From sequence record PZ445517.1: a DNA stretch of 64,000 bases, one strand, 5' to 3'. Source of the stretch: a phage. A model generated the notes under the pieces. That model worked only from the letters and a program-made list of their open reading frames with translations, ran no database searches and was not told the DNA's origin. Both the position numbers and the translations under genes were made by a program. Position 1 is the first letter of the stretch. Every line of letters begins with the position of its first letter. Positions 3,388 to 63,851 of this stretch are shown here, in pieces.

Positions 3388-3417
3388 ATAGTACCACAGT
3401 ATGCTTTGGTTGTAAAC
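3388..3417 (-). promoter_or_regulatory. T4-type early (sigma-70) promoter upstream of motA
   Basis: minus strand reads GTTTAC (3412-3417 rc), 18 nt, TACTAT (3388-3393 rc); member of a repeated promoter cassette. Confidence 0.6.
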
Positions 3418-3447
3418 CTTTTTGTGAAAAAATTTTTGGAATAAAAA

Positions 3448-3468
3448 AGGGAGAGCCGAGGCTCTCCC
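3448..3468 (-). terminator. intrinsic terminator hairpin
   Basis: gggagagc-cgag-gctctccc stem-loop; on minus strand followed by TTTTTTATT. Confidence 0.55.
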
Positions 3469-3473
3469 TAAAA

Positions 3474-3623
3474 TTAATGCATGACTGTGATAACTGTCAT
3501 GATAACACGTTGAATGCCGAACGCAAGAAGACCTCCTGCTACAGCTGGAACAACACCTAAACCTGTCAGTAAAATGCTACCAGATACTAATGCCGCGCTT
3601 GTAATACCTATAAATGGACTCAT
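3474..3623 (-). CDS. small hydrophobic peptide, 49 aa
   Basis: hand-translated MSPFIGITSAALVSGSILLTGLGVVPAVAGGLLAFGIQRVIMTVITVMH; ATG overlaps the gene 52 stop (ATGA); below the ORF-track size cutoff. Confidence 0.35.
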   Translation of the reverse strand: MSPFIGITSAALVSGSILLTGLGVVPAVAGGLLAFGIQRVIMTVITVMH

Positions 3624-4948
3624 TTGATTTCCTCTAAATCTTTGGTGTATTCTGTAACTACATCAGTAGTTTTCCAATATTCGTTTTCTTCTTTCTTAGC
3701 TTTAGCTTCTTCAGCAAGTTTCTTTGCTTCATCGGAAGTCATATGAAAAATATTCATTCCGACTAGTTTATCAACATAAGAAGAATACATATCAATTTTA
3801 GAAAGTTCTTCGGTTAGTTCTTTGCGAGTTTTACCTTGCACAACAATTTCACCTGAAATTACTTTCTTAATGAAATGCGCCTTGGCAAAGGCTAAACGAA
3901 ATGCTGATTCAGTTTCTTTGATTTTGTTATCAATTCGTTTTTGGACATAAGTTTTACGAACTTCAACAAAGTCTTTAATTAAATCAACTACGTTATCGTA
4001 AACTTGCAGCTTTCCTTTCTCATTAATGACTGTAATATTCTGAGAACGACGCTCAATCAACCCGAAGTCTTTCATAATTTTTGCATGGCGTTCTTCTTCG
4101 TTATCACTCAAAGAATATTCTTTGCGGAATTTAATTTTAAAGCCAAAGCCATGCTCACCGCAAGCATCATCCCATGTAATGAAGCCTTTATCTTCAAGCG
4201 GATCTAAGATTTTACTCACGTAAGTTTCACGATCATACTTATACGGAATCTCAGTGATATTCATTTGAGTTCGTGAAGTAAACTTGTACGTTCCACGAAT
4301 TTCATATTGACCGTCAATTTCAACGACTTCACCACGAAATTCTGGGAATTCTACCTTCGGTTTAGTTACTTTCTTTCCTTGAAGAGCTTGTAGTACAGCT
4401 TTCTTGACAGAAGAAACACTATGAGGAAGAATGTAAGTTGCATAACCAGTTGCAATACCGGAAACACCATTAAGAAGAACAGTAGGAATAATAGGCAAAT
4501 AGAAAGCAGGAGGAATGTGTTCTTTATCTTGATGTACCGGAGCATATTCAGTATCTTTATATACGCTATAGAAATTTTTACTTACACGAGCAAAAATATA
4601 ACGACTTGCTGCTGCTTTTTGAACGGTACGAGAACCAAAGTTTCCTTGACCATCTAACAAAGGAAAGTTATTATTCCAAGTGTTAGCCATCAAAGCCCCC
4701 GCATCTTGTGCAGAGTTTTCGCCATGATGATATCCAAGGTCAGCTACACCACCTGCAATAGAAGCGAGTTTGTGAAACTTATCTTTATTTCCCCGTGCCA
4801 AATCAAGAGCTCGAGCGATAACAAATCGTTGAACTGGCTTAAATCCATCAATCATATTTGGAATAGCACGGTTTTCAACCGTGTACATAGCATAAGCCAA
4901 TGCTTCATTATCAATGATACTTTTTAAATCGCGATTATTCAGTTGCAT
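3620..4948 (-). CDS. 52: DNA topoisomerase II medium subunit (GyrA-like)
   Basis: 442 aa; ...AIPNMIDGFKPVQRFVIARAL... GyrA/ParC-type DNA breakage-reunion motifs; length equals T4 gp52. Confidence 0.9.
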   Translation of the reverse strand: MQLNNRDLKSIIDNEALAYAMYTVENRAIPNMIDGFKPVQRFVIARALDLARGNKDKFHKLASIAGGVADLGYHHGENSAQDAGALMANTWNNNFPLLDGQGNFGSRTVQKAAASRYIFARVSKNFYSVYKDTEYAPVHQDKEHIPPAFYLPIIPTVLLNGVSGIATGYATYILPHSVSSVKKAVLQALQGKKVTKPKVEFPEFRGEVVEIDGQYEIRGTYKFTSRTQMNITEIPYKYDRETYVSKILDPLEDKGFITWDDACGEHGFGFKIKFRKEYSLSDNEEERHAKIMKDFGLIERRSQNITVINEKGKLQVYDNVVDLIKDFVEVRKTYVQKRIDNKIKETESAFRLAFAKAHFIKKVISGEIVVQGKTRKELTEELSKIDMYSSYVDKLVGMNIFHMTSDEAKKLAEEAKAKKEENEYWKTTDVVTEYTKDLEEIK

Positions 4949-4952
4949 AAAT

Positions 4953-5093
4953 TTACCATACTAGTGAATGTAGTGCCATAATAACATCAGAAATGAAAAG
5001 CACGACTTGAATTAATCCGAACATTACTCCATAATATAGTGCTACCAATAAAGCAGCAAGGGCTAATGAATAGCCCAAGATTTTCTTAATCAT
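4953..5093 (-). CDS. small membrane peptide, 46 aa (52.1 position)
   Basis: hand-translated MIKKILGYSLALAALLVALYYGVMFGLIQVVLFISDVIMALHSLVW; ATG sits inside ATGATTAA overlapping the upstream stop. Confidence 0.4.
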   Translation of the reverse strand: MIKKILGYSLALAALLVALYYGVMFGLIQVVLFISDVIMALHSLVW

Positions 5094-6496: not shown

Positions 6497-6524
6497 TTTC
6501 TGTTCCTCCGTAGTTGATAGTTGT

Positions 6525-6554
6525 ATAGTACCACAGAGGAACAGTCTTGTAAAC
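6525..6554 (-). promoter_or_regulatory. T4-type early promoter
   Basis: GTTTAC (6549-6554 rc), 18 nt, TACTAT (6525-6530 rc); conserved cassette. Confidence 0.6.
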
Positions 6555-6739
6555 AACTTTTTTAAAAATATTCGTAATAAATGTGAATACCAATCACTAC
6601 TGCCGAAACTTGCGCAACCCACCACGCACAAGCAATAAGTACAGAATTAAAAATTTTCATAATAACCTCATCACAAAAGTAAATGTTAAACAAATTAATG
6701 GAATACTAATTAACCAAACAAAACACCACCATAATGAAC

Positions 6740-7012
6740 TCATAGTTCAATCTCAGCGATTTTCATTTCATTACTATTAATAGCCGCTTTAAGACTATCT
6801 GAAAGAATTACATTCCAGTGGTCATTCATATGACCATTAACTAAGCGTGTAATTTCTTCGGGAGTTGAAAAATAAGGCGTATCAGACTCCCAATGCGATA
6901 GTCCCAAGCGAGTATAAATCATACCTTCATCGTCGCTAGAATATTCAACTGACACAAACTCATCAGTTATTTTATGTTTAGCGTAATAAAATTTAAATTT
7001 CATTTTACTCAA
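6740..7012 (-). CDS. hypothetical protein, 90 aa
   Basis: ORF in array. Confidence 0.4.
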   Translation of the reverse strand: MSKMKFKFYYAKHKITDEFVSVEYSSDDEGMIYTRLGLSHWESDTPYFSTPEEITRLVNGHMNDHWNVILSDSLKAAINSNEMKIAEIEL

Positions 7013-7215
7013 TAATCCGCTAAAAGATCGACGATTGCATCACGAAGACACTTATTCGCAATACGTTTAAGAGCAATTTCAGTTTCTGGAGCATTTTGAA
7101 TAATCATTGAATTCAATTCAGCCTCAGCAAACTGAAGTTCTTTAACTAATTCAGCTTTATATTTTCCTTGACCTTTCTTAGCTTTTGCTCGTTTTAATTC
7201 AGCTGTAGTAAACAT
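7009..7215 (-). CDS. hypothetical protein, 68 aa
   Basis: start placed at internal ATG 7213-7215 after GGAG; the track N-terminus is promoter read-through. Confidence 0.4.
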   Translation of the reverse strand: MFTTAELKRAKAKKGQGKYKAELVKELQFAEAELNSMIIQNAPETEIALKRIANKCLRDAIVDLLADY

Positions 7216-7249
7216 TTTTATTCTCCAATCCATATCAGTTGATAGTTGT

Positions 7250-7279
7250 ATAGTACCACGGTCCTTGTGATATGTAAAC
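7250..7279 (-). promoter_or_regulatory. T4-type early promoter
   Basis: GTTTAC (7274-7279 rc), 18 nt, TACTAT (7250-7255 rc). Confidence 0.6.
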
Positions 7280-7295
7280 TGTTTTGTGAAAATTT

Positions 7296-7853
7296 TTAAA
7301 TGGAAAGATACCATCCGTTGTAGTTGCTTTTTCTTACAACCTTACGAAGGTCTTCTCTATCACCGATGAACTTCGGAGTGTACTGGATGACACCTGGATG
7401 AATTTCTTTAGTGTTGAATATAATTATACAGTCAGCGACCTGATGATTCAGAATGGGCCCTAGATTTATTCCAGAACCGTATGGATACTCTCCGCTGCAT
7501 CCTGTTGTTACCGAAATCCAACGTGAGTCAGTTTGATGTGTCTTAACTTCTACACGAAGCCCGCAGTATTTTGGATGCGCCAGTACATCCCACGCATATG
7601 TATACGGGTCATTAACATCCTCTTGGCCTTTGTTAACATACCCGCTTAGCCAATCTGCTACAAAAAACTCTGCATACACAGCGATACGACATCTTTCAAT
7701 AACTTCTGCTTTATCCTGATTCGGATTTTGTTTTAAAGAGTATCTTGCTGTATCAGCAATTTTGACCTTCATTTCACTAGTCAAGTCACTGTTCAATAGG
7801 GTAAATGTCGGAATCTGAAATAGTCTCTGTAAACCCGGATTCGTTTTCTGCAT
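7296..7853 (-). CDS. denB: endonuclease IV (DenB)-like
   Basis: 185 aa, same length as T4 DenB; located just downstream of rIIB as in T4. Confidence 0.5.
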   Translation of the reverse strand: MQKTNPGLQRLFQIPTFTLLNSDLTSEMKVKIADTARYSLKQNPNQDKAEVIERCRIAVYAEFFVADWLSGYVNKGQEDVNDPYTYAWDVLAHPKYCGLRVEVKTHQTDSRWISVTTGCSGEYPYGSGINLGPILNHQVADCIIIFNTKEIHPGVIQYTPKFIGDREDLRKVVRKSNYNGWYLSI

Positions 7854-11300: not shown

Positions 11301-11504
11301 TTAATTCATATTGCGTTTAATAACTTCAGCAACTTCTAGTAGTTCGTCTTTAGTTGCGGTGTCGGATTGAATTTTATCTCTAATATCCTTAAAGCGGTTT
11401 TTAAACTCTTCAGCTTCTCCCATATCGAAAAAGCGTTGAATGATTCTATATTCTCGATGAACTGCTTTATCAAAAAGTTCTAAATTTACTTTATATGATT
11501 TCAT
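11301..11504 (-). CDS. hypothetical protein, 67 aa (rIIA.1 position)
   Basis: small ORF between gene 39 and rIIA. Confidence 0.4.
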
Positions 11505-11529
11505 TTCAATATCCTCATTTGCCCAATTA

Positions 11530-11559
11530 ATTATACCACATCCTTGTGGTAAAGTAAAC
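11530..11559 (-). promoter_or_regulatory. T4-type early promoter
   Basis: GTTTAC (11554-11559 rc), 18 nt, TGGTATAAT (11530-11538 rc). Confidence 0.6.
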
Positions 11560-13379
11560 TACTGGCTCATCCATTCTTTACGAAGGTCAGCATTATCTCC
11601 CATGAGCATTTCAAAAAGCTCTTTCCAATTCTCAGGAAGTTTAACAACATCATAAACTGGGTTTTGAATCATCTCACGATATTCAGATTTTTCCAAAGAG
11701 CCAAGTCCTTTAATATAACGGATGCTATGTTTAGGTAGAGCATCTTTGGCACTCTCATATTCAGCGACTGTATAAAACCATTCTTGTTTTTTACCGACCT
11801 GAGCGATGATTACAGGAGTTTTGACAAAGCGAATTCTTCCTTGTTCAAAAAGTTCTGGCCAATTACTAAAAAATCCGAGCAGAGAAGGATAAATGCTTCC
11901 TAGACCATCGTGGTCAGCATCGGTCATAATAGCAATATTATGATAATTCAAGTTTTCAGCTTTTTCACCAAGAACTAATCCAGTGATTGCACAAATATCA
12001 AACAGTTCTTTGTTTTTAAGCATATCAGCATATGACATACCCCAACTGTTAAGAACTTTACCACGTAATGGATAACCACCATGAAGTTCTTTATCACGAA
12101 CATCAATAAGATATCCGATAGCAGAATCACCCTCAGTCAAGAAAAGAGTAGTGTCAGCATCTTTACCACAAAGATTCGCTTTAATATGTTTATGAACCTT
12201 AGCTTTAGAAGCCTTTTTAGCTGCTTTAGTTTCTGCTGCTTTTTCTGCCGCCAATTTACGAGCCAAGGCAGCTTCAATAATTGGCATTAAAATTGCTTCA
12301 TTATTTAAAATAGCACGTGAAATCTTTTTAGCATCAAGCTGAATATGACTACGAATTTCACCAAATGGAGAAGTCAAACGCTCTTTAGTCTGAGAGTCAA
12401 ATCGCATGTTTTTCATATCACGAACAAACATAACGATAGTCAAACATTCTTTAACACGTGCTTTAGTTACATCAATTTTGAACTTACGTTTGATTTGTGG
12501 AATAAGGTCTTCACAAATATCATCCATAACACAGTCAATGTGATGGCCACCATTCTTAGTATGAATGTTATTGACGTACGTTAATTGACGAAAACCATCC
12601 GGCGAACGACCAACCGCAATAGAACAGTTTTCTTGTTCTTGAACGATAGCATGCTCATCATATTGGCGTGCATATTTCTTAAAATTACCCTGAACCTTTT
12701 TACCATTAAAGGTAAATTGAATATCAGGATAAACTACTGCAAGTGTCTGGAGACGATCTAGTGTAATGTCAAGATAAACTTGAGATAGCTCATTAGTTTC
12801 AAATGACATAAAATCAGGAATGAAAGTAACGCGAGTTCCTTTCCATTTTCCAGGAATATCTTCCCACGATTTATTTTCCATGCCGTTTGAACAACGAACT
12901 ACAATATTATTTTGACCGTCGCCAGTTTCACCGACAAACATCACAGAAAAAATGTTAGTTAAACTAGAACCAACACCATTCATACCACCGGTGACGCGTT
13001 CTTTATCATCACCAAAGTTACCACCTGCTTTTGGAATAGTCCAGGCAGCAACTGGACCAGGAATTTCTTCACCAGTAGGTGTTTTAACCATCGCCTGTGG
13101 AATACCACGACCGTTATCTTCAACTGTTACTTGATTGTTTTTGATAGTAACATTAATTTTATTTGCGAATTTAAACTTAGTACGAATACCTTCATCTACT
13201 GAGTTATCGATAATTTCATCAATAAGCTTAACAAGACCAGGTACATACTGAACACTTTCCCATTTACCAAACAGAAAGCGCTCATGCATTTCATTAGCAG
13301 AAGAGCCAATATACATGCCGCTACGCTTTTTGATATGTTCAATATCGCTCAGAATTTTAATTTCATTCTTAATCATCAC
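11559..13379 (-). CDS. 39: DNA topoisomerase II large subunit (GyrB-like ATPase plus TOPRIM), uninterrupted
   Basis: 606 aa continuous ORF; ...GMYIGS..., IDNSVDE, ...NGRGIP... GHKL ATPase motifs. Confidence 0.9.
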   Translation of the reverse strand: MMIKNEIKILSDIEHIKKRSGMYIGSSANEMHERFLFGKWESVQYVPGLVKLIDEIIDNSVDEGIRTKFKFANKINVTIKNNQVTVEDNGRGIPQAMVKTPTGEEIPGPVAAWTIPKAGGNFGDDKERVTGGMNGVGSSLTNIFSVMFVGETGDGQNNIVVRCSNGMENKSWEDIPGKWKGTRVTFIPDFMSFETNELSQVYLDITLDRLQTLAVVYPDIQFTFNGKKVQGNFKKYARQYDEHAIVQEQENCSIAVGRSPDGFRQLTYVNNIHTKNGGHHIDCVMDDICEDLIPQIKRKFKIDVTKARVKECLTIVMFVRDMKNMRFDSQTKERLTSPFGEIRSHIQLDAKKISRAILNNEAILMPIIEAALARKLAAEKAAETKAAKKASKAKVHKHIKANLCGKDADTTLFLTEGDSAIGYLIDVRDKELHGGYPLRGKVLNSWGMSYADMLKNKELFDICAITGLVLGEKAENLNYHNIAIMTDADHDGLGSIYPSLLGFFSNWPELFEQGRIRFVKTPVIIAQVGKKQEWFYTVAEYESAKDALPKHSIRYIKGLGSLEKSEYREMIQNPVYDVVKLPENWKELFEMLMGDNADLRKEWMSQ

Positions 13380-14898: not shown

Positions 14899-14997
14899 TA
14901 CAATTTCCTCATTAATTGAACAGTGGAGCGATGCGTTTCAGAAGAGTAGCAGCACCTTTGGCAAATTTTCCATTTTATTCTCCAAGTTGTTTTCTGT

Positions 14998-15045
14998 ATC
15001 AGTAGTTGATATTGATATAGTACCATAATCAACTACTGATGTATA
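14998..15045. repeat. inverted repeat (promoter-cassette remnant) next to an A13 homopolymer at 15056-15071
   Basis: atcagtagttgat ... atcaactactgat arms are exact reverse complements enclosing a TACTAT-like element; no GTTTAC at the expected spacing. Confidence 0.5.
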
Positions 15046-15076
15046 TAGTTTTATGAAAAAAAAAAAAATTTAAACT

Positions 15077-15574: not shown

Positions 15575-15612
15575 AGTTATCTCTCACTTGTTAAAAAGAT
15601 TTTATACTCCAC

Positions 15613-15648
15613 GGGACCATTATACTCTGGTCCCAAGAGTTTGTAAAC
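15613..15648 (-). promoter_or_regulatory. T4-type early promoter with -10 inside a stem-loop
   Basis: GTTTAC (15642-15647 rc), 17 nt, TATAAT (15619-15624 rc); gggacc/ggtccc inverted repeat brackets the -10. Confidence 0.55.
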
Positions 15649-16192: not shown

Positions 16193-16732
16193 TTATCTCA
16201 TTTCAATAAAATCTATGAGTTCAGCATGCGATTTGCGGAACATTACTTGGTGCCCGCCAATGATAACTTCATCTTCAGGAACTTCGTATACAGCGAGATA
16301 AAATCCTTTAGAAGATAATTCTTCCCGCTCTTCTCGTGTGAACCATCTCATCATATCATATTCACTAGCGAAAGCAAAATGATAAAGAGCTATAAACCAC
16401 CCTGGAATATGATATTCTACTCCAACATAATCTTTCTTGAACTTAGTATTAATTACTATATTAGCGTTTTTAACTAATAGTTTATCTTCGTGTGGTAAAG
16501 GAATTCTTTTATTATTATCGCTATGATGCATAAAATTAGGTCTGTCATAACCTACGTGTAATAGCCACTCTTCGCTCCATGAATCTATTATACTCCTGTA
16601 CGGCGTTATTTGAACACAAAGATTTCGACGTATTGTTATAGCATCTTCATAATCAAGAATACTAAACGATGATTCAACACGATAAATTTTCATTTTATTA
16701 TCCTCAGTAGCTATGGTGTTATAATACCACAA
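16193..16732 (-). CDS. hypothetical protein, 179 aa
   Basis: ORF in array. Confidence 0.4.
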   Translation of the reverse strand: MWYYNTIATEDNKMKIYRVESSFSILDYEDAITIRRNLCVQITPYRSIIDSWSEEWLLHVGYDRPNFMHHSDNNKRIPLPHEDKLLVKNANIVINTKFKKDYVGVEYHIPGWFIALYHFAFASEYDMMRWFTREEREELSSKGFYLAVYEVPEDEVIIGGHQVMFRKSHAELIDFIEMR

Positions 16733-16750
16733 CTAACTGAGGAAGTAAAC
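16702..16750 (-). promoter_or_regulatory. T4-type early promoter with -10 inside a stem-loop
   Basis: GTTTAC (16745-16750 rc), 18 nt, TATTAT; cctcagt/actgagg inverted repeat encloses the -10. Confidence 0.5.
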
Positions 16751-20346: not shown

Positions 20347-20376
20347 ACTATATCATTTTTACTTCAGCTTGTAAAC
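20347..20376 (-). promoter_or_regulatory. T4-type early promoter
   Basis: GTTTAC (20371-20376 rc), 18 nt, TATAGT. Confidence 0.55.
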
Positions 20377-21035: not shown

Positions 21036-21655
21036 TCAACTACCTCAATATCATACACTTTAAATGTTCCAAATGAATCGTGTAATTTTTCTTTTGAAAT
21101 AGAAGTTATTTTATACTTTCCAATTGGAATCATCCATTCTTGTTCACGCACAATCATCATTAAGTTATCAGTACGTTCTGAATCTAATCCATCAGTATCT
21201 TCATATGTATACTTAAACTCAGTATTAGGAGAAGAAAGTATAATATCGCTGATATGGTCAGAATAATTAAAAGCTTTATCAGTTTTTAAGCGAAATATTA
21301 TTTCAGTGAAATACTCAACATAAGAAAAACCGCACGCTGTGTGCAAACTAGTAGTAAATGAATCTACTCTGTTCGTTGAAAACACTTCTCCGACTTGTAA
21401 ATCTTTAATGAGTTCTTTTGTCGATTTTGATATACCACGATATAGCTGATAAGGTGATTTAGTTAAATGCTTTTTAACGATTTTATTCAACTGCCGATGA
21501 AGAGCTTCATTCTTTTTAGCTTCCATACATTGCCAAAGAACTGATTGTTCAAAGTCAGTAAATTTTTCACAGACCTTTTTATACATATCATATTGAAAAT
21601 CAACACTTTCAGCTTTTATAGATAACTGTTCAACATCTGCAAGATTAATAATCAT
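21032..21655 (-). CDS. modB: ADP-ribosyltransferase ModB-like
   Basis: 207 aa from the second ATG (GGAGG upstream), matching T4 ModB length; LYRG, FSTN, EQEWMIP motifs. Confidence 0.65.
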   Translation of the reverse strand: MIINLADVEQLSIKAESVDFQYDMYKKVCEKFTDFEQSVLWQCMEAKKNEALHRQLNKIVKKHLTKSPYQLYRGISKSTKELIKDLQVGEVFSTNRVDSFTTSLHTACGFSYVEYFTEIIFRLKTDKAFNYSDHISDIILSSPNTEFKYTYEDTDGLDSERTDNLMMIVREQEWMIPIGKYKITSISKEKLHDSFGTFKVYDIEVVE

Positions 21656-21681
21656 GATAGCCTCCATATACTTCAGAAGCT

Positions 21682-21711
21682 ATCATATCATTGTTAGGAA
21701 GGAAAGTAAAC
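21682..21711 (-). promoter_or_regulatory. T4-type early promoter
   Basis: GTTTAC (21706-21711 rc), 18 nt, TATGAT. Confidence 0.45.
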
Positions 21712-23795: not shown

Positions 23796-23825
23796 ATTAT
23801 ACCATACTCATTTTGGAAAGTAAAC
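23796..23825 (-). promoter_or_regulatory. T4-type early promoter
   Basis: GTTTAC (23820-23825 rc), 18 nt, TGGTATAAT. Confidence 0.6.
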
Positions 23826-27097: not shown

Positions 27098-27157
27098 GAT
27101 AATCTCCTCAGTAGTTTATGTTTATATAGTATCTCAATTTCTAACAAAAGTAAACAC

Positions 27158-27608: not shown

Positions 27609-27637
27609 AACAATCTCCCCATTTAACCAACAAGACT

Positions 27638-27667
27638 ATTATACCATAGTCTTGTCAGCTTGTAAAC
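27638..27667 (-). promoter_or_regulatory. T4-type early promoter
   Basis: GTTTAC (27662-27667 rc), 18 nt, TGGTATAAT. Confidence 0.6.
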
Positions 27668-33066: not shown

Positions 33067-33100
33067 TTCATTCTCCAAATCCGCGTCAGTTGATAGTTGT

Positions 33101-33130
33101 ATAGTACCACGGAAGAACAGAGATGTAAAC
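33101..33130 (-). promoter_or_regulatory. T4-type early promoter
   Basis: GTTTAC (33125-33130 rc), 18 nt, TACTAT; conserved cassette. Confidence 0.6.
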
Positions 33131-33218
33131 AGTTTTGTGAAAAAACTTTTAATGAATTCCAGAGGTCCAGAATCATCTATTTTTCCTAAGTATAGATTTA
33201 TATTACTTGTATGAAAAA

Positions 33219-47368: not shown

Positions 47369-47662
47369 TCAGCTGTAACGATAACACTCGTTTGATTTAC
47401 GTTTAGCAACTCGTTGAGAAGTATTATAATCAAAATCATCGTCAATGTAAACTGATTTTTTCAACTTTCTTACTTCACCGCGTAATTGACGATTTAGCTC
47501 ATCTTTAACTTCTGAATCAATACCTTTCATTCTACGCCATTTATCTGAGCGAAAAATGTTTTCAACCATATCTTTATGACTTACACCATCAGGAGCTTTA
47601 CGCTTTCCGAAATAGTCATAATCACGTACTTTTAAATCTTTACGACGATACGTTTTACCCAT
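47369..47662 (-). CDS. hypothetical basic protein, 97 aa
   Basis: start MGKTYRRKDLK... at ATG 47660-47662, overlapping the upstream stop (ATGGGTAA). Confidence 0.4.
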   Translation of the reverse strand: MGKTYRRKDLKVRDYDYFGKRKAPDGVSHKDMVENIFRSDKWRRMKGIDSEVKDELNRQLRGEVRKLKKSVYIDDDFDYNTSQRVAKRKSNECYRYS

Positions 47663-47861: not shown

Positions 47862-47891
47862 ATAATACCACGGTTTGAACCTGTTGTAAAC
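47862..47891 (-). promoter_or_regulatory. T4-type early promoter
   Basis: GTTTAC (47886-47891 rc), 18 nt, TATTAT. Confidence 0.5.
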
Positions 47892-53026: not shown

Positions 53027-53131
53027 TTAAGTCATTTATCGTTGGTTCATTATATACTGTTTCTTCATCAGTGTAAACCGGTTCTTCCGGCTCTGGCTCT
53101 ACTGTTTCCCATCTAGCCGCCCACCAAGGTT

Positions 53132-54112: not shown

Positions 54113-54370
54113 TTATTCCTTAATTCCTAGTACTTGTTTAAAAGTCTCGTCATAATCAAGACTTTGGCCCGTTTGTTCTTTATGTTTGTATATAATATCA
54201 CTTACTTCTGATAGCATATTTTTATATGAACGAGTTAAAGCAGATTTAAGCACGCTGTATCTATCAGGAAATTTACCATGTTCATTATAATAAGCTATTG
54301 CTAATTCACGGACTGCCTTTTCAGCAGTCTCCATATATTCTTTACGCTTGGTCATTTTCTTCTCTGTCAA
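54113..54370 (-). CDS. hypothetical protein, 85 aa
   Basis: ORF. Confidence 0.4.
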
Positions 54371-54638: not shown

Positions 54639-55561
54639 TTCAGTACCTCAATAGCATCACGTAAACCATTTGCTTTGGCGGTTAAAGCCTTAATAACTTT
54701 AGTATGCTCTTCAATCTGTTTTTCAACTTCAATCAAACGGGCACTGAGATATTCGCGTTCTTCTTTCATAGTATCATTCCCATGATTGGGCTTTGGCGTA
54801 GATTTAAATTTACTAGGGTCCTTTAACTTAATAACAACTTTAGTTTCAAACAGTGAAAGACCATAATTTGTATTATCATCAAAGGATTCAACTACGTCCA
54901 TTTTAGATAATAACGTGCGAAGATTATAAGTCAAAGAACGAATCGTTTTATTATGTTTATTAGCTTCGCACGGTTTCATATATGGAAGATTTTTATATAT
55001 TTCATGCGGAGCACAAACAATAATTGACAATTCAAATGGTCCATTCTGTGATGATGGAATGAATTTAGCTGTAACCCAATCTTTTACATTTACATTAATA
55101 GTACGGTCATCGCCATGACAAAACAGTCTACGAGAATGCTTAAAAAGCATATTCACGTTATTATTAAATTCATGTGAAAACTCACTAGCAAATTTTTCTT
55201 TACTATTTTTAGAAAACCATTCTTCTAAATAAGTTCTTTTCACGTCATTAATAATATTAAATGTAACAACATTAGCATTTGATACATTAGTCTCAATGTA
55301 GCTTGGATACATAAATTTTTTAACATTATTAACAGCTATCACAGAAGATAGTAATCGGGAACGTTTGAACCACTCTAGCAAAGAACCAAGAGAATGTGAA
55401 TATGCATTTTGTGTATCTTTACAAATATGGTTTTCCCATCCAATATAGTCTAAAAAATCACGAAGAATATTATTGATTACTGCTCTGTGTCCAATCTGAT
55501 AACTACGGTGTTTAGTAATAAGACTGTCAAAATAATCAATATAATGTTTACGAGTTTTCAT
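54635..55561 (-). CDS. coiled-coil-tailed paralogue A, 308 aa
   Basis: shares FKRSRLLS-type motif with paralogue B; C-terminal 40-50 aa heptad-like, K/E/L-rich. Confidence 0.45.
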   Translation of the reverse strand: MKTRKHYIDYFDSLITKHRSYQIGHRAVINNILRDFLDYIGWENHICKDTQNAYSHSLGSLLEWFKRSRLLSSVIAVNNVKKFMYPSYIETNVSNANVVTFNIINDVKRTYLEEWFSKNSKEKFASEFSHEFNNNVNMLFKHSRRLFCHGDDRTINVNVKDWVTAKFIPSSQNGPFELSIIVCAPHEIYKNLPYMKPCEANKHNKTIRSLTYNLRTLLSKMDVVESFDDNTNYGLSLFETKVVIKLKDPSKFKSTPKPNHGNDTMKEEREYLSARLIEVEKQIEEHTKVIKALTAKANGLRDAIEVLK

Positions 55562-56643: not shown

Positions 56644-56673
56644 ATTATACCACATCCTTGTGGCGAAGTAAAC
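56644..56673 (-). promoter_or_regulatory. T4-type early promoter
   Basis: GTTTAC (56668-56673 rc), 18 nt, TGGTATAAT. Confidence 0.6.
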
Positions 56674-57706: not shown

Positions 57707-58615
57707 TTAAGATTTAAGTAAATCAACAATTTTAATTAATTTTTCACGCTCAGATTTAGCTTTACTACTCAGTCCAGATAGTCTGAAAATTTCATCATCA
57801 TATTGCTGAATAGAAATATTCAGCTCTTCAATCTGCTTATTAAAATAATCAATTTGTTCAGAATGTTTTTCGTTACTACGAACTGGTACAGGTTTTGTAG
57901 GCAATTTAGTTGAACTGGATTCATCCGGGCGATAAATTAAAATACAACTTGAACCAATAGGGCATTTTGCACCAGATGAATATTCTAATGTTCCGGCTTC
58001 TTTTAAAACTTCAAAAGCTAAACAGAGATGATGACCCATATTGACATAATCTGTAGAGCGAGCTCTGATGTAATAATCATCTCCGCGAATACTAAATTTA
58101 AAGCATTTAAGGTCTTCTGTATTATTGGTCTTAAAAATCATTTGTTTATCTAGACCTTTAGCTAATCGAGCGCCTAATGCTAATAATCGTCGTTGATTTT
58201 CCCACAAATCCGCAATCATTTGATCAAATGATAATTTCGGCATTAGTCGACCATAAAGGTCGTATCCTTTATTATAATTGCGAAGGATTTCACTCGCATT
58301 AATACGAGACAATGCTCCAATTTTATTAAGGGCTTTCATGATGCGATTAGATAAACCCATTCCAGACCCGTTTGTTCGTTGTAAATGTTTATCTAATCCA
58401 AACCCAATATCAACTTTAAATTTATCTAAAATTTCAGCATGAACATCTCTGTCAATAACATTCAAATCCAAAGTTGGGTTAAATCTATGAAAAAATTTAT
58501 CTGGCTCTCCACGACGAAGTACAGTCCATTCATTCAATTTTTTATTAACTAAAGATTTAATTACTGCATTGACATTATTAATTACGACTGACATATTTTC
58601 CTCACTCAATTTCAA
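57707..58615 (-). CDS. coiled-coil-tailed protein D, 302 aa (possible fourth paralogue)
   Basis: similar size and C-terminal coiled coil; N-terminal similarity to A-C is weak. Confidence 0.4.
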   Translation of the reverse strand: MKLSEENMSVVINNVNAVIKSLVNKKLNEWTVLRRGEPDKFFHRFNPTLDLNVIDRDVHAEILDKFKVDIGFGLDKHLQRTNGSGMGLSNRIMKALNKIGALSRINASEILRNYNKGYDLYGRLMPKLSFDQMIADLWENQRRLLALGARLAKGLDKQMIFKTNNTEDLKCFKFSIRGDDYYIRARSTDYVNMGHHLCLAFEVLKEAGTLEYSSGAKCPIGSSCILIYRPDESSSTKLPTKPVPVRSNEKHSEQIDYFNKQIEELNISIQQYDDEIFRLSGLSSKAKSEREKLIKIVDLLKS

Positions 58616-58648
58616 TTTTACTAAATACGCAGAATATGATGGAAAAGA

Positions 58649-59011
58649 CTATATAAGCACCACACACACAGATTGAACTAATACCATTCCAAAGAACCAA
58701 ACAATATTATCAAACAATGTCTGTTTTACGTCGAAAGGACGTAAACTTACAGTAATATTATCGCCTTTTTCTATTGATGAATACATCTCTGGGGAAATAT
58801 ATTCGCTAAATCTATAACCGTCATTGAGTTCATATACAGCAATAAACGATAAACTAGATCCCTTTCCTTGAGTTCCTGTAAGGGTATTAACTACAGTAAC
58901 ATCATAATCTTTATAATGCATATAATCATTAATTGCGTAATAACCATATGCAATTACTATACATAAACAACATATCAATAAATTCAATCTTTTAATTATC
59001 AACTGTTTCAT
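58649..59011 (-). CDS. hypothetical membrane protein, 120 aa
   Basis: N- and C-terminal hydrophobic segments. Confidence 0.4.
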   Translation of the reverse strand: MKQLIIKRLNLLICCLCIVIAYGYYAINDYMHYKDYDVTVVNTLTGTQGKGSSLSFIAVYELNDGYRFSEYISPEMYSSIEKGDNITVSLRPFDVKQTLFDNIVWFFGMVLVQSVCVVLI

Positions 59012-59066
59012 AATAATCTCAGTTAAAAGGGCTTAGAACCATTATACCATCCTTGGTATAAAGCGG

Positions 59067-59594
59067 TTATGCGAGTACCGTCTTTAACCGTTCTTCAAAC
59101 TTCCGAAGAGTATTCTGGCGTTCAGCTCTTTGCTTTTTGTAAGTTTCAATACGCTCTGAAATGAGAGTGTATCGTTCATTTACTGATTCTTTCATAAAAT
59201 CAGGAATTTCACGAGAAGATTTAATCTCGTCAAATTTATCAATAACAGCTTGCTCTTCAGCAATTAAGTTATCATACATCAAAATATCTTTCTTGATGAA
59301 CTCAATATCTTCTTGAGTTACACGAGATAATTTAGATGCTTTATCCTTTTTGTACTGTTCATTAGTATCACGAGACCAGTGTAATGTACGATTTTTATTC
59401 GTATTTTTGTAAATTTCTACAATACCGATCTCATCAATAATAACGATCCAATTCCAACGAGATTTGTAAATTTGTCCTCCATCAACCGTGATTTCACCTC
59501 CGATTGAGATGTCATTAAAGAACTTGCTTTGTGCTTCAGATTTAAATTTACCATCATTGTAGTTTACCAAGTTGAAAATATCTTTAGCATTCAT
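59067..59594 (-). CDS. hypothetical protein, 175 aa
   Basis: start at ATG 59592-59594 with GGAGG upstream; track N-terminus is promoter read-through. Confidence 0.4.
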   Translation of the reverse strand: MNAKDIFNLVNYNDGKFKSEAQSKFFNDISIGGEITVDGGQIYKSRWNWIVIIDEIGIVEIYKNTNKNRTLHWSRDTNEQYKKDKASKLSRVTQEDIEFIKKDILMYDNLIAEEQAVIDKFDEIKSSREIPDFMKESVNERYTLISERIETYKKQRAERQNTLRKFEERLKTVLA

Positions 59595-59622
59595 TTTCTG
59601 TTCCTCCGTAGTTGATAGTTGT

Positions 59623-59652
59623 ATAGTACCACAGAGGAACGGTCTTGTAAAC
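59623..59652 (-). promoter_or_regulatory. T4-type early promoter
   Basis: GTTTAC (59647-59652 rc), 18 nt, TACTAT; conserved cassette. Confidence 0.6.
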
Positions 59653-59654
59653 AA

Positions 59655-59969
59655 CTAAAAGAAACTTCTTTCACAATTTTTTCCACTGAACCACGCGCTC
59701 ACTGCTTTCTTAGTCTCAGGAGCAGTGTTATCCATAAACCATTCAAAGGCAGCCTTTTTATGATTCTGGAGAGCTTCTCGGGCTTTAATCTGCTCACGGT
59801 CTATTAACACTAACATATGAGCCTTTCTTGTCACCAAGGGCTTCTTATGATTCTTGGAGTATTCCCAGTCATTTGTCCAACGCATTGTCGTTGCGAACTG
59901 AAATACTGCTTCTTTAATTTTAATTTCGTAAATTTCACGAGCCTTTGAGTATAACATCATTACCTCCAT
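59655..59969 (-). CDS. hypothetical protein, 104 aa
   Basis: ORF. Confidence 0.4.
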   Translation of the reverse strand: MEVMMLYSKAREIYEIKIKEAVFQFATTMRWTNDWEYSKNHKKPLVTRKAHMLVLIDREQIKAREALQNHKKAAFEWFMDNTAPETKKAVSAWFSGKNCERSFF

Positions 59970-60058
59970 TTACCAGTTTAATTCTAGTCATCTTTTTGAT
60001 GGCAGTCCATATAATCTATTTCTGAACTGCCTTTTTGTCATAGAAGGCCTCTTATGAA

Positions 60059-61027
60059 TTATTTCAGAAGAGTAACCTCAGCAATTTCTTCCCAACCATT
60101 TTTGTCGGTCATAATAAAGTCAGCAAGATAAAGAGCAGTACGCAGTGAAACATTGCGTAAACGATTAACATTGACTTTCATCCATGATAATGCTTTATAA
60201 GTTTCTTCATCAGAAAGACCGCGCTTTTGCATCATGTCAGTTGAAAGAATAACATCTTCAACCCTGACCATAATTTCTTCATTAGTGTGAACACCCAAAT
60301 CCAAATAAACCGAGCGGGACACTAATGCTTGTAAGTGTGGGGCAAGTTTAGTACCACGGTCTAATTCGCGGTCAATGTCAACGTTTGTGATAAAAACAAT
60401 CGTTCCTTTAAATTCAAACTCACGCTCAATGCCTTTTTCTTCTAAGTAAGAAGATGCAGTGCTCCAGCAGACTTTACGGGTCTCTCCAGTGTCCAGAGCA
60501 GCTTTCAGAAGATTAAGAATGTCCATATCAGAGAAAACATCCACATCATCAATCAAAAGGACAGAATTCTCTTCACGATTATTCCAAAGCTGCTCATAAA
60601 GACCAATACCAGAGATTTTACCATTAATGCTTTTATATTCAATGTATCCATTATCATTTGCTTTATTTAAAGCTTTATCTAAAGAATACGTTTTACCAAT
60701 ACCTGCTGCGCCAGAGATAATTAATGAACGAATATTTCCATTAATAATACCATTCGTCATCATTCCCATAACATTAAATCTTTTATTAATGCGGGTTTTC
60801 ATATCTTCATATGATTCTTTAACTTCTTCAACTTTTACACCATCATATGAAATATCTGATTTGTAAACCCAAACACCACGACGTTTACCGTCAATTTCAA
60901 CAAAAACTTTACCATCTCCTTGTGCATCTACCGGAGCATTATCTGGGAACCATTCGCCTAAGAGCTCAAAAGTTCCAGAGATTTCTTTACCGAAGTAGAT
61001 ACCCTTATTGATAGTTACAGTTTTCAT
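60059..61027 (-). CDS. P-loop NTPase (AAA+-like), 322 aa
   Basis: start at ATG 61025-61027 (GGAGA upstream); Walker A SGAAGIGKT, Walker B VLLIDDVD, sensor-1-like TIVFITN; own promoter and terminator. Confidence 0.6.
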   Translation of the reverse strand: MKTVTINKGIYFGKEISGTFELLGEWFPDNAPVDAQGDGKVFVEIDGKRRGVWVYKSDISYDGVKVEEVKESYEDMKTRINKRFNVMGMMTNGIINGNIRSLIISGAAGIGKTYSLDKALNKANDNGYIEYKSINGKISGIGLYEQLWNNREENSVLLIDDVDVFSDMDILNLLKAALDTGETRKVCWSTASSYLEEKGIEREFEFKGTIVFITNVDIDRELDRGTKLAPHLQALVSRSVYLDLGVHTNEEIMVRVEDVILSTDMMQKRGLSDEETYKALSWMKVNVNRLRNVSLRTALYLADFIMTDKNGWEEIAEVTLLK

Positions 61028-61061
61028 TTTATTCTCCAAATCTGTATCAGTTGATAGTTGT

Positions 61062-61091
61062 ATAGTACCATAAAGCTTTATGCTTGTAAAC
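61062..61091 (-). promoter_or_regulatory. T4-type early promoter
   Basis: GTTTAC (61086-61091 rc), 18 nt, TACTAT; conserved cassette. Confidence 0.6.
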
Positions 61092-61121
61092 AGTTTTGTG
61101 AAAAAATTTTGAAATAAAAAA

Positions 61122-61140
61122 GGGAGCCCGAAGGCTCCCT
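61122..61140 (-). terminator. intrinsic terminator downstream of the nucleotidyltransferase gene
   Basis: gggagcc-cgaa-ggctccc; minus strand hairpin followed by TTTTTTATTT. Confidence 0.65.
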
Positions 61141-61141
61141 A

Positions 61142-62155
61142 TCATTTATAATAACTTCGGTGGTTTTCAAGATAAACCCTCTCAAGGAAGTCATCCCAGA
61201 AACCCATGTCTACTTTTTGCTGCATACCGTTTTTAGAAGCTTCAATGGATGCTGCTTCTACTTGATCGACAACATCTTCCAAAAACTCTTGAACCGTTTT
61301 AAATGGATGTTTACCCAACTTCACGTCGAGAATAAATGGAGCATCTTGGAGTGGATAAACCAAGTCACCAGTTTTGTAAATTTCCAATAGTTGGAGCCCG
61401 CCACGGCAAGCATGACTTAGAGCTTTCCAATCAATGCCTTCATTCGCTTCAGCTTTACGAGCGCGTTCACCATATTCAGCATCAAGTTTATTCAAAGACT
61501 GCTTAAGCTCAATAAGAGAAAGCGTTGTCTGATATTTACGACCCAACACAGTATAGAACGTTTGCGGGCCTGTTTTCTCATGATTATGGAATACCCATTC
61601 GCAGAATTCGTTTTCTGGAAGACGGTGTTTAATATCTGCAATTTTAGTACGACGTTGTCCTTGTGTTCCATCTTCTCGGTAATCAACCCACTGATCGGGG
61701 ATTTGATTAACTACTTTCAATACATCACGCAATGCGGCCAAACGAGAACCCTTAACACCATATTTAGAAGCTTGCTTGCGGACATATCCTAAATAGGATT
61801 TCATGTTAGTCGTATAAAAACGAGAACGATTGTCTTGGATAAATTTCCACACATCAGGTAAATCAGATTTAACCACTAGTTCAGGTGGAGTGTGAAGCAT
61901 ATCCAATGCTACAGTTTCACCATCTGCTGCTAATTTAAAGAAATACTTAAGACTGTATAGTTCATGGTCAATATCATCTTTAGTGTTTTTAGATGATGTG
62001 TTGTTAGTGTTTTTACTCATATGCTCTTTAACATTTCCGATAAGAATATCGCGAGCAGGAGGAACAAAGATTTCTTTAAAATCCACATCAGATTCTGGAG
62101 TAGAAGTTCCATAAAGATGACTACCAAAATAGCTTTTCATTACTGTTTTCATCAT
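61142..62155 (-). CDS. Pol-beta-type nucleotidyltransferase-fold protein, 337 aa
   Basis: N-terminal signature GSHLYGTSTPESDVDF (GS-x9-DxD) with a further acidic residue in ...ETVALDMLH...; start overlaps the stop of the upstream membrane-protein gene (ATGA). Confidence 0.55.
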   Translation of the reverse strand: MMKTVMKSYFGSHLYGTSTPESDVDFKEIFVPPARDILIGNVKEHMSKNTNNTSSKNTKDDIDHELYSLKYFFKLAADGETVALDMLHTPPELVVKSDLPDVWKFIQDNRSRFYTTNMKSYLGYVRKQASKYGVKGSRLAALRDVLKVVNQIPDQWVDYREDGTQGQRRTKIADIKHRLPENEFCEWVFHNHEKTGPQTFYTVLGRKYQTTLSLIELKQSLNKLDAEYGERARKAEANEGIDWKALSHACRGGLQLLEIYKTGDLVYPLQDAPFILDVKLGKHPFKTVQEFLEDVVDQVEAASIEASKNGMQQKVDMGFWDDFLERVYLENHRSYYK

Positions 62156-62613
62156 TCAGCCTTATATTCAATAACAGGACATACTTTAGCTTTACGAGCT
62201 TTTAAAAATTCGACGATAATAGACTTCTTGGGTTGAATAGGAGGTAAACCTTTATACGCCCTATCAATATTTTCTACATGTAAAGCATAATCCTTTTTCC
62301 ATTTATAATCTTTATATTTTTCATGCAGTTGTGCAGGAATAACAAATGAACCAATAATAAGTAAAACAAGCAAAATGGCAAGTATAAATGCTGATGGAAT
62401 AAGAGTCCATAAACTACTAAAAATAAGCCAACGTTGTAAACTTTCTGCGCAGATAATAGTTAGACCTGCGAGTATAGTACATCCAAAAACAGAAACGAAG
62501 AATGTAGGAATGGCAATAGACCAAAAATATGCACACAGTGTCTTAGGTCGTTTCCATTCATCATTAAACATTTTGAATAATTTATAATGCCAAGAGCTTT
62601 CATTAATAATCAT
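62152..62613 (-). CDS. hypothetical membrane protein, 153 aa
   Basis: hydrophobic segments AYFWSIAIPTFFVSVFGCTILAGLTIICA and LIPSAFILAILLVLLIIGSFVIP; coupled to the nucleotidyltransferase gene. Confidence 0.45.
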   Translation of the reverse strand: MIINESSWHYKLFKMFNDEWKRPKTLCAYFWSIAIPTFFVSVFGCTILAGLTIICAESLQRWLIFSSLWTLIPSAFILAILLVLLIIGSFVIPAQLHEKYKDYKWKKDYALHVENIDRAYKGLPPIQPKKSIIVEFLKARKAKVCPVIEYKAE

Positions 62614-62615
62614 AA

Positions 62616-63137
62616 TTATCCTTTCATTGAAGGTGTAACAGTTGTTAAATACTTAATCATAGCTTCAGCTTCTGATTTTGATAATGAAATTTCTCCATTG
62701 TTTTGACGAATAGAAATAAAATCAGGGTGACGGTCACCACCAGCTTTCAAAACACACATATAGGTATCAGTTTCATCTTCAATATTTGAAATGATTGAAG
62801 CAGTTCCGCATGAATGCGGTTTTTGATAAATCAATACAGCTTTTCTTCCGCCATTTGACTGTTCATAAACTTTTAATACATCAAACAAATCACTTCTTTT
62901 ATCAATAGCTAAAATGTTATTTTCATCTTCAATGTTAAATCCTTCGGATACTTCATAAAGTGTCACCCATAAATCGTCAATATCAATAACAGCGTTCACT
63001 TTTCCATGACTTTCAAGAGCATGACAAATTTTCTTGATTTCGTCATAACTCATTTTAATAATATCATCTCCTTGAATAAGGAAGATGTCATTTTTAAATT
63101 CAACACGAATTAAACCGCTTCCACTTGAAATAAACAT
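62616..63137 (-). CDS. hypothetical protein, 173 aa (paralogue of 63144..63689)
   Basis: C-terminus ...SKSEAEAMIKYLTTVTPSMKG aligns with ...TKDEAIALKTYLDSVIPTMISK of the adjacent ORF. Confidence 0.45.
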   Translation of the reverse strand: MFISSGSGLIRVEFKNDIFLIQGDDIIKMSYDEIKKICHALESHGKVNAVIDIDDLWVTLYEVSEGFNIEDENNILAIDKRSDLFDVLKVYEQSNGGRKAVLIYQKPHSCGTASIISNIEDETDTYMCVLKAGGDRHPDFISIRQNNGEISLSKSEAEAMIKYLTTVTPSMKG

Positions 63138-63143
63138 ATTTCC

Positions 63144-63689
63144 TCACTTTGAAATCATAGTTGGAATGACAGAATCAAGATAAGTCTTTAGCGCAATAGC
63201 TTCGTCTTTGGTAAATGTAACAATATGTGATCGAAAATCGTCAATTTGGCGAATAGTTAAGACATCTCCCTCTTCATAACATTTTGATACATTTAAAAGA
63301 GTTTCATCATTCTGATTGCAAGCGTTAGTAATAATAGCATTGCAATTTTTGAGCCATTTTAAACTATGTTTTCTTTCATTAGAATAATAAAAATATTTAA
63401 TCTTATCTATAAAACTATCCCAATGGATAACTGATAAGCATATTGACTCGCTTTCAATATTAAATCCTGGGCATGAAGAATAAAAATGAATTTTATGCTC
63501 ATCATTAATGCTTACAATTTTATCAGTATAAGGATTTTCAATTTTGGTTAAATGAATGATTTCACTAGGCGTAAAATACAGCATATCGTCTTCTTGTGTC
63601 AAACGATACATATTATTTACTTTTTCTATAGCCAATTCACCAAAAAGTGAACTAACTTCTAATACTAATCGTTTCGCCGCTACCGTCAT
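63144..63689 (-). CDS. hypothetical protein, 181 aa (paralogue of 62616..63137)
   Basis: shared C-terminal motif and shared G-F-N-I-E segment with the adjacent ORF. Confidence 0.45.
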   Translation of the reverse strand: MTVAAKRLVLEVSSLFGELAIEKVNNMYRLTQEDDMLYFTPSEIIHLTKIENPYTDKIVSINDEHKIHFYSSCPGFNIESESICLSVIHWDSFIDKIKYFYYSNERKHSLKWLKNCNAIITNACNQNDETLLNVSKCYEEGDVLTIRQIDDFRSHIVTFTKDEAIALKTYLDSVIPTMISK

Positions 63690-63821
63690 TACATACTCCT
63701 CTGAATCATATCAATAATGTTGTTCACCAGATTATAAGTAAACATTGGGTAATTATATTGAATCACCACATACACAACAAACAAAACTTTCATTCTCTTC
63801 TCCTTGGCAGTTGACAAGATT

Positions 63822-63851
63822 ACTATACCATAACCTTGCCAACTTGTAAAC
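63822..63851 (-). promoter_or_regulatory. T4-type early promoter at the head of the paralogue / membrane / nucleotidyltransferase operon
   Basis: GTTTAC (63846-63851 rc), 18 nt, TGGTATAGT. Confidence 0.55.

Follow-up and report, generated by a model that had tools for sequence, protein, structure and literature searches.

We have analyzed 64,000 nucleotides of phage DNA (sequence record PZ445517.1), referred to here at its full length as the window, along which a promoter-like cassette is repeated on the minus strand. Very probably the repeats serve a T4-like phage as its sigma-70 early promoters, and a sub-family of near-identical copies also acts as crossover points for the exchange of small genes. 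The window belongs to a Tequatrovirus. It is 100% identical to Escherichia phage T4_ev240 (LR597657.1) across the tested stretch, about 96–97% identical to many Tequatrovirus genomes and about 95% identical to T4. The main finding confirms textbook T4 biology, together with the model of modular shuffling at promoter-early stem-loop (PeSL) elements, in one more Tequatrovirus. Two things are added to the literature that we examined. One is a control: the junctions of gene gain and loss follow the near-identical sub-family (four of six cassettes) and not early promoters generally (none of 12), which favours homology-driven exchange over tolerance of insertions. The other is a clear two-way exchange of alleles between promoters located about 53 kb apart.

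Probable early promoters on the minus strand

The pattern GTTTAC-N18-TAnnnT had 20 matches in the window, all of them on the minus strand, which carries nearly all the genes. Shuffled sequences gave an expectation of 0.97 matches, with four in the largest shuffle. With a looser gap (N16–19) there were 23 matches on the minus strand and two on the plus strand. These counts bear out the preliminary description of this DNA, which had pointed to minus-strand sites sharing GTTTAC, an 18-nt spacer and a TATAAT-like hexamer. In the canonical register the -35 element is TTTACA, and the 18-nt gap between GTTTAC and the hexamer is the standard 17-bp spacer. A Shine-Dalgarno sequence (SD) and an ATG were found 15–60 nt downstream of 18 of the 20 sites, and most had an A/T-rich tract upstream. 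The A+T content from -60 to -37 was 65–91% at 19 of 21 sites, being weaker at 53078 and 11559 (sites are named here by position in the window). At most sites TGG or TGA directly preceded the -10.

The early promoters of T4 (Pe) are a classical subject (Liebig and Rueger, 1989; Wilkens and Rueger, 1996; Miller et al., 2003, cited via Hinton, 2010 and Nolan, 2006). Their consensus has GTTTAC at -36 to -31 and a GT-rich stretch before the -10 (Nolan, 2006). They have been called "uber" UP/-35/TGn/-10 promoters with additional consensus regions (Hinton, 2010), and for T4 and PST the consensus TTTACW-N17-TAYWAT was given (Comeau, 2014). The sites in the window have the same GTTTAC position, TGn-extended TAnnnT -10, A/T-rich UP tract and extra conserved positions at the start. 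They match T4 promoter-like sites one-to-one at the same gene junctions (motA, ndd.4, ndd.6, imm.1, nrdC.8, nrdC.10, motB.2 and others). Since the motif equals the published consensus and each copy has an orthologous site in T4, the early-promoter identity proposed before holds. Nothing essential differs from the T4 promoters. This phage departs from T4 in having another allele at the ndd.4 promoter, an extra open reading frame (ORF) behind the promoter at 7279 and, because of insertions and deletions (indels), a slightly different complement of promoters. The predicted layout would be that of a sigma-70 early promoter. It would have an A/T-rich UP tract and the T4-type -35 (G-TTTACA), then 17 bp of spacer with TGn at the end, the TAnnnT -10 and, about 7 nt further on, the start. 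Such promoters would fire on the unmodified host RNA polymerase right after infection.

A family of near-identical cassettes

Within this set a 23-nt core, AGTTGATAGTTGTATAGTACCAC, occurs exactly at 3375, 6512, 7237, 33088 and 59610 and with one mismatch at 61049, while 100 shuffles gave an expectation of 0. The six copies described before as sharing a core of about 45 bp are therefore real and lie where they had been placed. The conserved block is longer than that, though: it takes in the UP tract AAAATTTTTTCACAAAAC and, in sub-groups, also the leader and SD up to the ATG, and there is a seventh, degenerate copy at 15004-15026. The full cassette reads, on the minus strand, AAAATTTTTTCACAAAAC-N-GTTTACA, a locus-specific spacer of about 14 nt, GTGG, TACTAT, ACAACT and ATCAACT, and the spacer is the only part private to each locus. 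The leader and SD ACGGAGGAACAGAAAATG are common to the cassettes at 6554 and 59652. The cassette at 61091 has the leader GATAC(A/G)GATTTGGAGAATAAAATG, with close variants at 33130 and 7279. The start region TACTAT-N5-6-CTATCAAC is conserved in other genera too, and T4 has further copies of the core outside the range of the window, e.g., at 70676.

We numbered the cassettes 1 to 6 in the order 3417, 6554, 7279, 33130, 59652 and 61091; all are on the minus strand. Cassette 1 (3347..3468) is located upstream of motA (ATG at 3346; T4 orthologue 163653). It consists of a terminator hairpin GGGAGAGCCTCGGCTCTCCC with a T-run (3449-3468), the UP tract, GTTTAC (3412-3417), the spacer, GTGG-TACTAT-ACAACTATCAACT (3375-3397) and a leader with a GGAG SD. 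Cassette 2 (6497..6580) is upstream of the 37-aa ndd.4 orthologue and its T4 orthologue, 166787, is a variant allele; its spacer CTGTTCCTCTGTGGT pairs with the SD-containing ACTACGGAGGAACAG in a hairpin at 6500-6544. The same spacer/SD hairpin is found (59600-59640) in cassette 5 (59595..59678), upstream of nrdC.8 (T4 orthologue 53923). Cassette 3 (7216..7305), the orthologue of the T4 promoter on the ndd.6 side (167066), heads a 68-aa ORF (7009-7215), and cassette 4 (33067..33156) is upstream of imm.1 (T4 orthologue 27060). Cassette 6 (61028..61139), upstream of nrdC.10 (T4 orthologue 55364), is made of a terminator hairpin GGGAGCCTTCGGGCTCCC with T-run, the UP tract, the promoter and the leader GATACAGATTTGGAGAATAAAATG.

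The seventh member (14973..15070, minus strand; T4 orthologue 6610) has four mismatches in the core and TATATAC in place of the -35. Its spacer ATCAGTAGTTGAT and the leader ATCAACTACTGAT are perfectly complementary and give a hairpin at 14998-15040. It precedes a truncated ORF of 11 aa, and a 197-nt deletion is located at 14963-14973 relative to three genomes. This ORF is similarly short in T4 and several others, and has 89 aa in Sf24, NR1 and one IMG/VR contig; the deletion falls just inside its 5' end.

Indel junctions and the exchange of small genes

The preliminary description had suggested that the cassettes could be recombination sites for shuffling gene modules, a point to be checked by aligning the copies and looking for novel junctions at their boundaries in related genomes. 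We aligned the window to eight genomes (T4, Sf24, NR1 and five IMG/VR Tequatrovirus contigs) and collected the events of at least 40 nt, 42 of them unique. A search of IMG/VR for the exact core yielded 10 stretches. As this number does not suffice for a view of the population, protein-anchored loci and GenBank records were used. Wherever an event touched a promoter cassette, the cassette belonged to the core family. Indel junctions were found within four of the six core cassettes (3417, 7279, 33130 and 61091), plus one just downstream of the seventh member, and no event in the eight genomes touches any of the 12 early promoters outside the family. Counted per junction, core cassettes differed from the other promoters with p=0.0036 and from all other gene junctions with p=0.037 (Fisher test).

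At cassette 1 the junctions are at 3374-3396 and 3396-3450, in three genomes that carry 322 to 351 additional nt. At cassette 3 the junction is at 7216 in all eight comparison genomes, the window having 205–444 nt more than each of them. At cassette 4 five genomes have an insertion of 233 to 260 nt, with an extra 78-aa ORF, at 33053-33066. At cassette 6 events of +515 and +722 nt are located at 61021-61039 and 61039-61125 in two genomes. The alignments at the two sides of the junctions overlap by 8–23 nt. In one comparison locus (L112) motA is preceded by an extra 75-aa ORF, which brings another promoter with it and is flanked by a 23-nt direct repeat, CTATCAAATAAATGAACTGAAAC.

What changes at these places is the first gene behind the promoter. 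Behind 3417 it is motA or the 75-aa ORF, and behind 33130 imm.1 or the extra 78-aa ORF. Behind 7279 the window has a 68-aa ORF, T4 has ndd.6 and the seven others have an 87-aa ORF. In all 118 records with the 68-aa ORF, T2, RB3 and RB14 among them, it occupies this same locus. Searches against Pfam gave no match for the small ORFs adjoining 7279 and no domain in the inserted ORFs of 68–87 aa.

These junctions, their overlaps and the exchanged alleles described below support the proposed role in module shuffling. The copies would offer 60–95 nt of dispersed homology, in one orientation and each exactly at the head of a transcription unit. Phage recombination, which would need only short homology and the enzymology of which we infer for exchange between cassettes, would use them as crossover points. 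Small genes would thereby be inserted, deleted or replaced as modules of leader plus ORF (plus the next promoter), and the neighbouring units would stay intact. Promoters outside the family would express inserts equally well and yet have no junctions, so that homology-driven exchange fits better than a tolerance of insertions.

A cassette that served instead as the target of a dedicated mobile system, i.e., a site-specific recombinase or a homing-type nuclease, could also collect junctions. Indeed, two different cassettes have junctions at the same position, directly after TATCAA (about +6), a specific DNA-binding protein was the subject of speculation before (Arbiol, 2010), and homing endonucleases abound in T4-like genomes. 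However, junction positions vary over the core, the leader and the SD/ATG, the inserted ORFs encode no nuclease or recombinase as far as Pfam domains indicate, and the endonuclease-associated indels of the window are located elsewhere. We consider such a system highly improbable, and general homologous recombination remains the mechanism favoured here.

Allele exchange between distant cassettes

Each locus retains its own spacer in all nine genomes compared, and the flanks are common to different loci. The persistence of locus-specific spacers in every genome indicates purifying selection on the contacts with RNA polymerase. The ndd.4 and nrdC.8 promoters gave evidence of a second process. In T4, NR1, Sf24 and four IMG/VR contigs the ndd.4 promoter core is TACTATTACCCTATCAACT or a variant of it in the -10. 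In the window and in contig 2974742932 it is TACTATACAACTATCAACT, of the nrdC.8 type, and the ndd.4 cassette of the window (6554) is near-identical to its nrdC.8 cassette (59652) over about 67 nt. Conversely, in contig 2974787500 the core at nrdC.8 is TATTATTACCCTATCAACT, the allele of ndd.4 type that Sf24 has at ndd.4. Identical clusters of 4–6 substitutions are thus present, in different genomes, at two loci about 53 kb apart, which indicates ectopic conversion. As read from these alleles, the two cassettes have exchanged sequence in both directions. Other pairs share even the spacer: besides 6554/59652 of the window, these are 146875/55384 and 27080/166807 of T4. Short-query BLAST at the ndd.4 and nrdC.8 sites gave a broad spread of identities over about 500 genomes, from which allele counts are not derivable.

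What unites the sub-family is the UP tract together with the -10 TACTAT, ACAACT as discriminator and ATCAACT as the first bases transcribed, to which sub-groups add the leader and SD. Two forces would maintain this likeness, purifying selection on RNA-polymerase contacts and occasional homologous exchange between copies. The first force could in principle suffice. The copies would then be alike only by independent selection for optimal binding of RNA polymerase, and the gain and loss of genes nearby would merely be tolerated behind promoters, with no recombination mediated by the repeats. Stable locus-specific spacers between conserved flanks are what functional selection predicts, T4 early promoters are known for extended conserved regions, and the start region around TACTAT is kept in other genera. 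Selection of this kind does not account for the lack of junctions at the 12 other early promoters, equally able to express inserts, nor for the overlaps of 8–23 nt and the flanking direct repeat of 23 nt. It fares no better with the same substitution clusters at two distant loci and with the pairs of cassettes that share spacers. We regard it as improbable that selection acted alone.

Several points weigh against early promoters doubling as crossover sites. Promoter activity and timing in this phage are predicted from orthology and consensus. Homing-endonuclease genes with no relation to the cassettes make up most of the window's large indels (mobA with the split of gene 60, segF, segA, mobB, mobC, I-TevII and mobD), and a plus-strand ORF at 39354-40070, proper to the window, is another large event. 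The per-junction test is modest when all junctions are taken as reference (p=0.037); it was made on a junction map from heuristic ORF calls, in which the cassette at 33130 was wrongly scored as a miss, and on only eight genomes, five of them IMG/VR contigs. The cassettes at 6554 and 59652 show conversion with no indel junction. Finally, the motA leader of the window and T4 is not a simple deletion product of the two-promoter arrangement in L112, and the histories must be more complex than one crossover.

In IMG/VR contig 2974787500_000001 the cassettes on the motA side (L103, ~11480-11530) and on the nrdC.10 side (L099, ~4360-4420) both lack the T-run, the UP tract and the -35. In these "half" cassettes the terminator stem is joined directly to the spacer or to the -10 region. 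They could be cases of real promoter inactivation or an artefact of assembly.

Comparison with PeSL elements

A role of early-promoter cassettes in recombination and shuffling is already known, as the PeSL or modular-shuffling model. In RB49 and phi1 the PeSL was described as a conserved cassette of stem-loop terminator, A/T tract, early promoter and SD that borders variable ORFs, with crossovers mapped between the -10 and the ATG and with mini-circles (Arbiol, 2010). The model was extended to T4/PST, including an ndd.4/ndd.5 exchange, and to KVP40/nt-1 (Comeau, 2014). An antecedent at internal-protein loci is credited to Repoila (1994). The cassettes of the window are similar in being dispersed units of A/T tract, early promoter and SD next to small variable ORFs. 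They are also found at the junctions of indels and replacements, including the ndd.4/ndd.5 locus of Comeau (2014).

There are two differences. Only three or four promoters in the window have the defining terminator stem-loop directly upstream. A terminator hairpin with T-run precedes those at 3417, 61091 and 23825 (by 16–31 nt) and, loosely, the one at 33130 (88 nt), and for this reason only these qualify as PeSLs. The other 17 sites, including the core cassettes 6554, 7279 and 59652, lack such a stem-loop. In addition, the junctions in the window go with membership in the near-identical core family rather than with a stem-loop. For the annotation of T4-like genomes, the cassettes offer a practical means of predicting where early transcription units lie and where mosaic joints are likely.

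The preliminary description had also singled out the sites at 15648 and 16750, where the -10 lies inside an inverted repeat, and had compared them with PeSLs. Folded segments of 79 nt, with a dG of about -24 and -27 kcal/mol, confirm the inverted repeats, but the likeness to PeSLs does not hold, since a PeSL needs a terminator stem-loop upstream of the promoter.

Hairpins around early promoters

The two repeats are part of a wider pattern. We found promoters within hairpins also at 63851, 27667, 6554, 59652, 21711 and 15046. When the spacer was paired with the following 45 nt, the best duplex reached -15 kcal/mol or less at seven of 20 sites in the window, against a mean of 0.33 in shuffles and 3.4% of genomic positions. 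About six of 15 T4 sites outside the range of the window reach the same value, including those upstream of regB, ipIII and ipI. In T4-like loci of other genera it is reached by 21–24% of predicted early promoters and by 4.9% of background positions. Over 183 non-redundant promoters of T4-like genera, a strong hairpin was present at 34%; among random positions the share was 3.9%. The -10 hexamer recurred downstream as its full reverse complement eight times against 4.2 expected, a borderline excess (p=0.05); the test with 5-mers was clear. A scan with Rfam gave no family at the gathering threshold anywhere in the window.

Two geometries can be distinguished. In class A the centre of symmetry is at -11.5 and the arms cover about -28 to -14 and -9 to +5. 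The window examples, all on the minus strand, are the promoters upstream of a mobD.2-region ORF (63809..63851, hairpin 63809-63844; T4 57990), of dmd (27625..27667, hairpin 27625-27660; T4 20612) and of motB (15606..15648, hairpin 15606-15640; T4 7215). The first two have inverted repeats of 15 bp. Arm sequences are unrelated and the centre is the same: it rounds to -12 in 21 of the 183 promoters, and is at -11.5 in the printed examples (window, T4 and loci L022–L143). The stems at 63851, 27667 and 15648 end before the SD.

Class B is centred at +3 to +6, with pairing between the -10 hexamer plus discriminator on one side and the SD plus start codon on the other. The example in the window is the promoter upstream of modB (21653..21711, minus strand, hairpin 21653-21687; T4 13186), where the -10 TATGAT and the discriminator pair with GGAGGCTATCATG, which contains SD and start codon. 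Among the many other instances are T4 13186 and loci L025, L026, L028 and L056. Start codons in the context ATCATG follow 14 of 20 TATGAT promoters and 17 of 163 others (p=1.7e-8), and the discriminator covaries with the spacer between SD and ATG (agc/gct, gac/gtc, gtc/gac, agac/gtct).

At 6554, 59652 and 16750 it is the spacer that pairs with the SD. The last of these promoters (16701..16750, minus strand; T4 8218), upstream of motB.2, has a hairpin at 16701-16743, with the spacer as one arm and the leader and SD (GAGGA) as the other. By name alone we infer that T4 8218 is the experimentally studied P8.1 (named in Hinton, 2010). In motB.2 orthologues of several lineages and other genera the SD is paired with unrelated upstream arms. 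In all, the 3' arm covers the SD and/or start codon at 21711 (TATGATAGCTTCTG / TGGAGGCTATCATG), 6554, 59652 and 16750.

In every case the 5' arm is located upstream of the start site, so that only read-through RNA, or DNA, can fold. A precedent exists in the T4 genes e, soc, 49 and I-TevI, in which a late promoter is inside a hairpin and translation is delayed (reviewed by Uzan and Miller, 2010). There too the 5' arm precedes the start site of the proximal promoter, the 3' arm spans the SD and/or AUG, and only read-through RNA folds. Those hairpins embed late promoters, whereas the ones predicted here embed early promoters; in addition, class A hairpins, with their centre at -11.5, mostly have the SD outside the stem. 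Our literature search, which did not reach Miller (2003) and Repoila (1994), found no description of dyad symmetry or inverted repeats at T4 early promoters.

Class B and the cases of SD pairing are likely to represent translational occlusion of read-through transcripts, as predicted from the pairing. RNA structure can also protect GGAG sites from RegB. It is conceivable, though rather doubtful, that the hairpins of the two geometries, at about one third of early promoters across T4-like genera, form a general RNA device. The fate of the first gene (translation, RegB cleavage, stability) would then be set by the origin of the mRNA, from the proximal promoter or by read-through. If this were true, some immediate-early proteins would be confined to the first minutes of infection. 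If confirmed, the hairpins would carry the "promoter inside hairpin" logic, known for late promoters of four T4 genes, over to a large part of the early promoters. They might also be relevant to how quickly early gene expression is shut off, which still lacks an explanation.

The alternative is that the inverted repeats bracketing the -10 act on DNA, as a cruciform or by nucleating the bubble at -11.5, and so help or block the open complex. The symmetry centre shared by 21 independent promoters with unrelated arms suggests such a role, as does the usual position of the class A SD outside the stem. Predicted SD/AUG accessibility points the same way: it dropped in read-through RNA by 0.19 in promoter genes and 0.14 in control genes, a non-significant difference (p=0.09), and for this reason we do not claim SD sequestration as a general role of the inverted repeats. 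On the other hand, the covariation of the class B discriminator with the SD-to-ATG spacer and the pairing of TATGAT with ATCATG make sense only for RNA. A fixed centre can arise simply because spacer and discriminator are the only free sequences in an intergenic gap filled by the promoter. The stems are also stabler in sense-strand RNA than in antisense in 23 of 28 cases, with 63 against 24 G.U pairs; as the sense strand is G-rich and more structured genome-wide, this asymmetry is supportive of RNA but not decisive. For the repeats as a whole an action on DNA seems unlikely to us, and for class A taken separately the role could be either at the RNA or at the DNA level.

Other early-promoter sites

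The remaining early promoters of the window are also on the minus strand. They lie upstream of asiA (GTTTAC-N18-TATTAT at 923..952; T4 161211), rIIA.1 (11530..11559; T4 2458), srd (20347..20376; T4 11851), sp (27126..27155; T4 20109), the 55.6 orthologue (47862..47891; T4 41706) and nrdC.4 (56644..56673; T4 50973). The one upstream of mrh.2 (23796..23825) lies 16 nt after the terminator hairpin of soc, in a PeSL-like layout. Two more matches to the pattern, at 47423..47452 and 53049..53078, are within coding sequence and doubtful as promoters: the first has no TGn or UP tract, and the second no TGn and no A/T-rich tract upstream.

The gene junctions holding promoters outside the core family (952, 11559, 15648, 16750, 20376, 21711, 23825, 27155, 27667, 47891, 56673 and 63851) have an indel junction in none of 12 cases, compared to 28 of 99 gene junctions with no promoter (p=0.035). 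Promoters of unique sequence thus look depleted in rearrangements.

Some spacers contain a mini-hairpin with a loop of the AAGGA type, which is CCACAAGGATGTGG at 11559 and 56673 (window 11534-11551 and the region 56647-56664) and CACAAGGACCGTGG at 7279 (7254-7272). A form from another genus is AACCAAGGATGGTT (L042, L043).

The window compared to T4

In alignment with T4 the window is colinear, starting at ~160.3 kb, crossing the map origin and reaching ~58.1 kb, with an identity mostly of 94–97%. It covers asiA, motA, gene 52, ndd, denB, rIIB and rIIA through to the nrdC and mobD region. The linear record LR597657.1 appears to have its end and start joined at window position ~8664/8665 (7004-7222 corresponds to 165294-165512, and 58000-64000 to 49336-55336), coordinates that are consistent with a circularly permuted genome.

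Missing with respect to T4 are the gene 60/mobA insertion, segF, dam, segA with the T4-type beta-gt, mobB, mobC, the nrdD intron with I-TevII, and mobD. Their places in the window are 11894-11959, 24150-24232, 24753-24774, 30604-31551, 44584-44609, 49422-50209, 51505-51508 and 62156-63119. The large topoisomerase subunit is a single ORF of 605 aa, indicating that the translational bypass element is absent, and a different ORF of up to 282 aa replaces the T4-type beta-gt. The plus-strand ORF at 39354-40070 (238 aa), between 45.2 and 46, is the sole sizeable one on that strand within the early region. It is missing in seven of the eight compared genomes; at this place a plus-strand ORF of equal length is annotated in the NR1 record. 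With a weak, sub-threshold match to HNH (E=0.007), it may encode a homing endonuclease.

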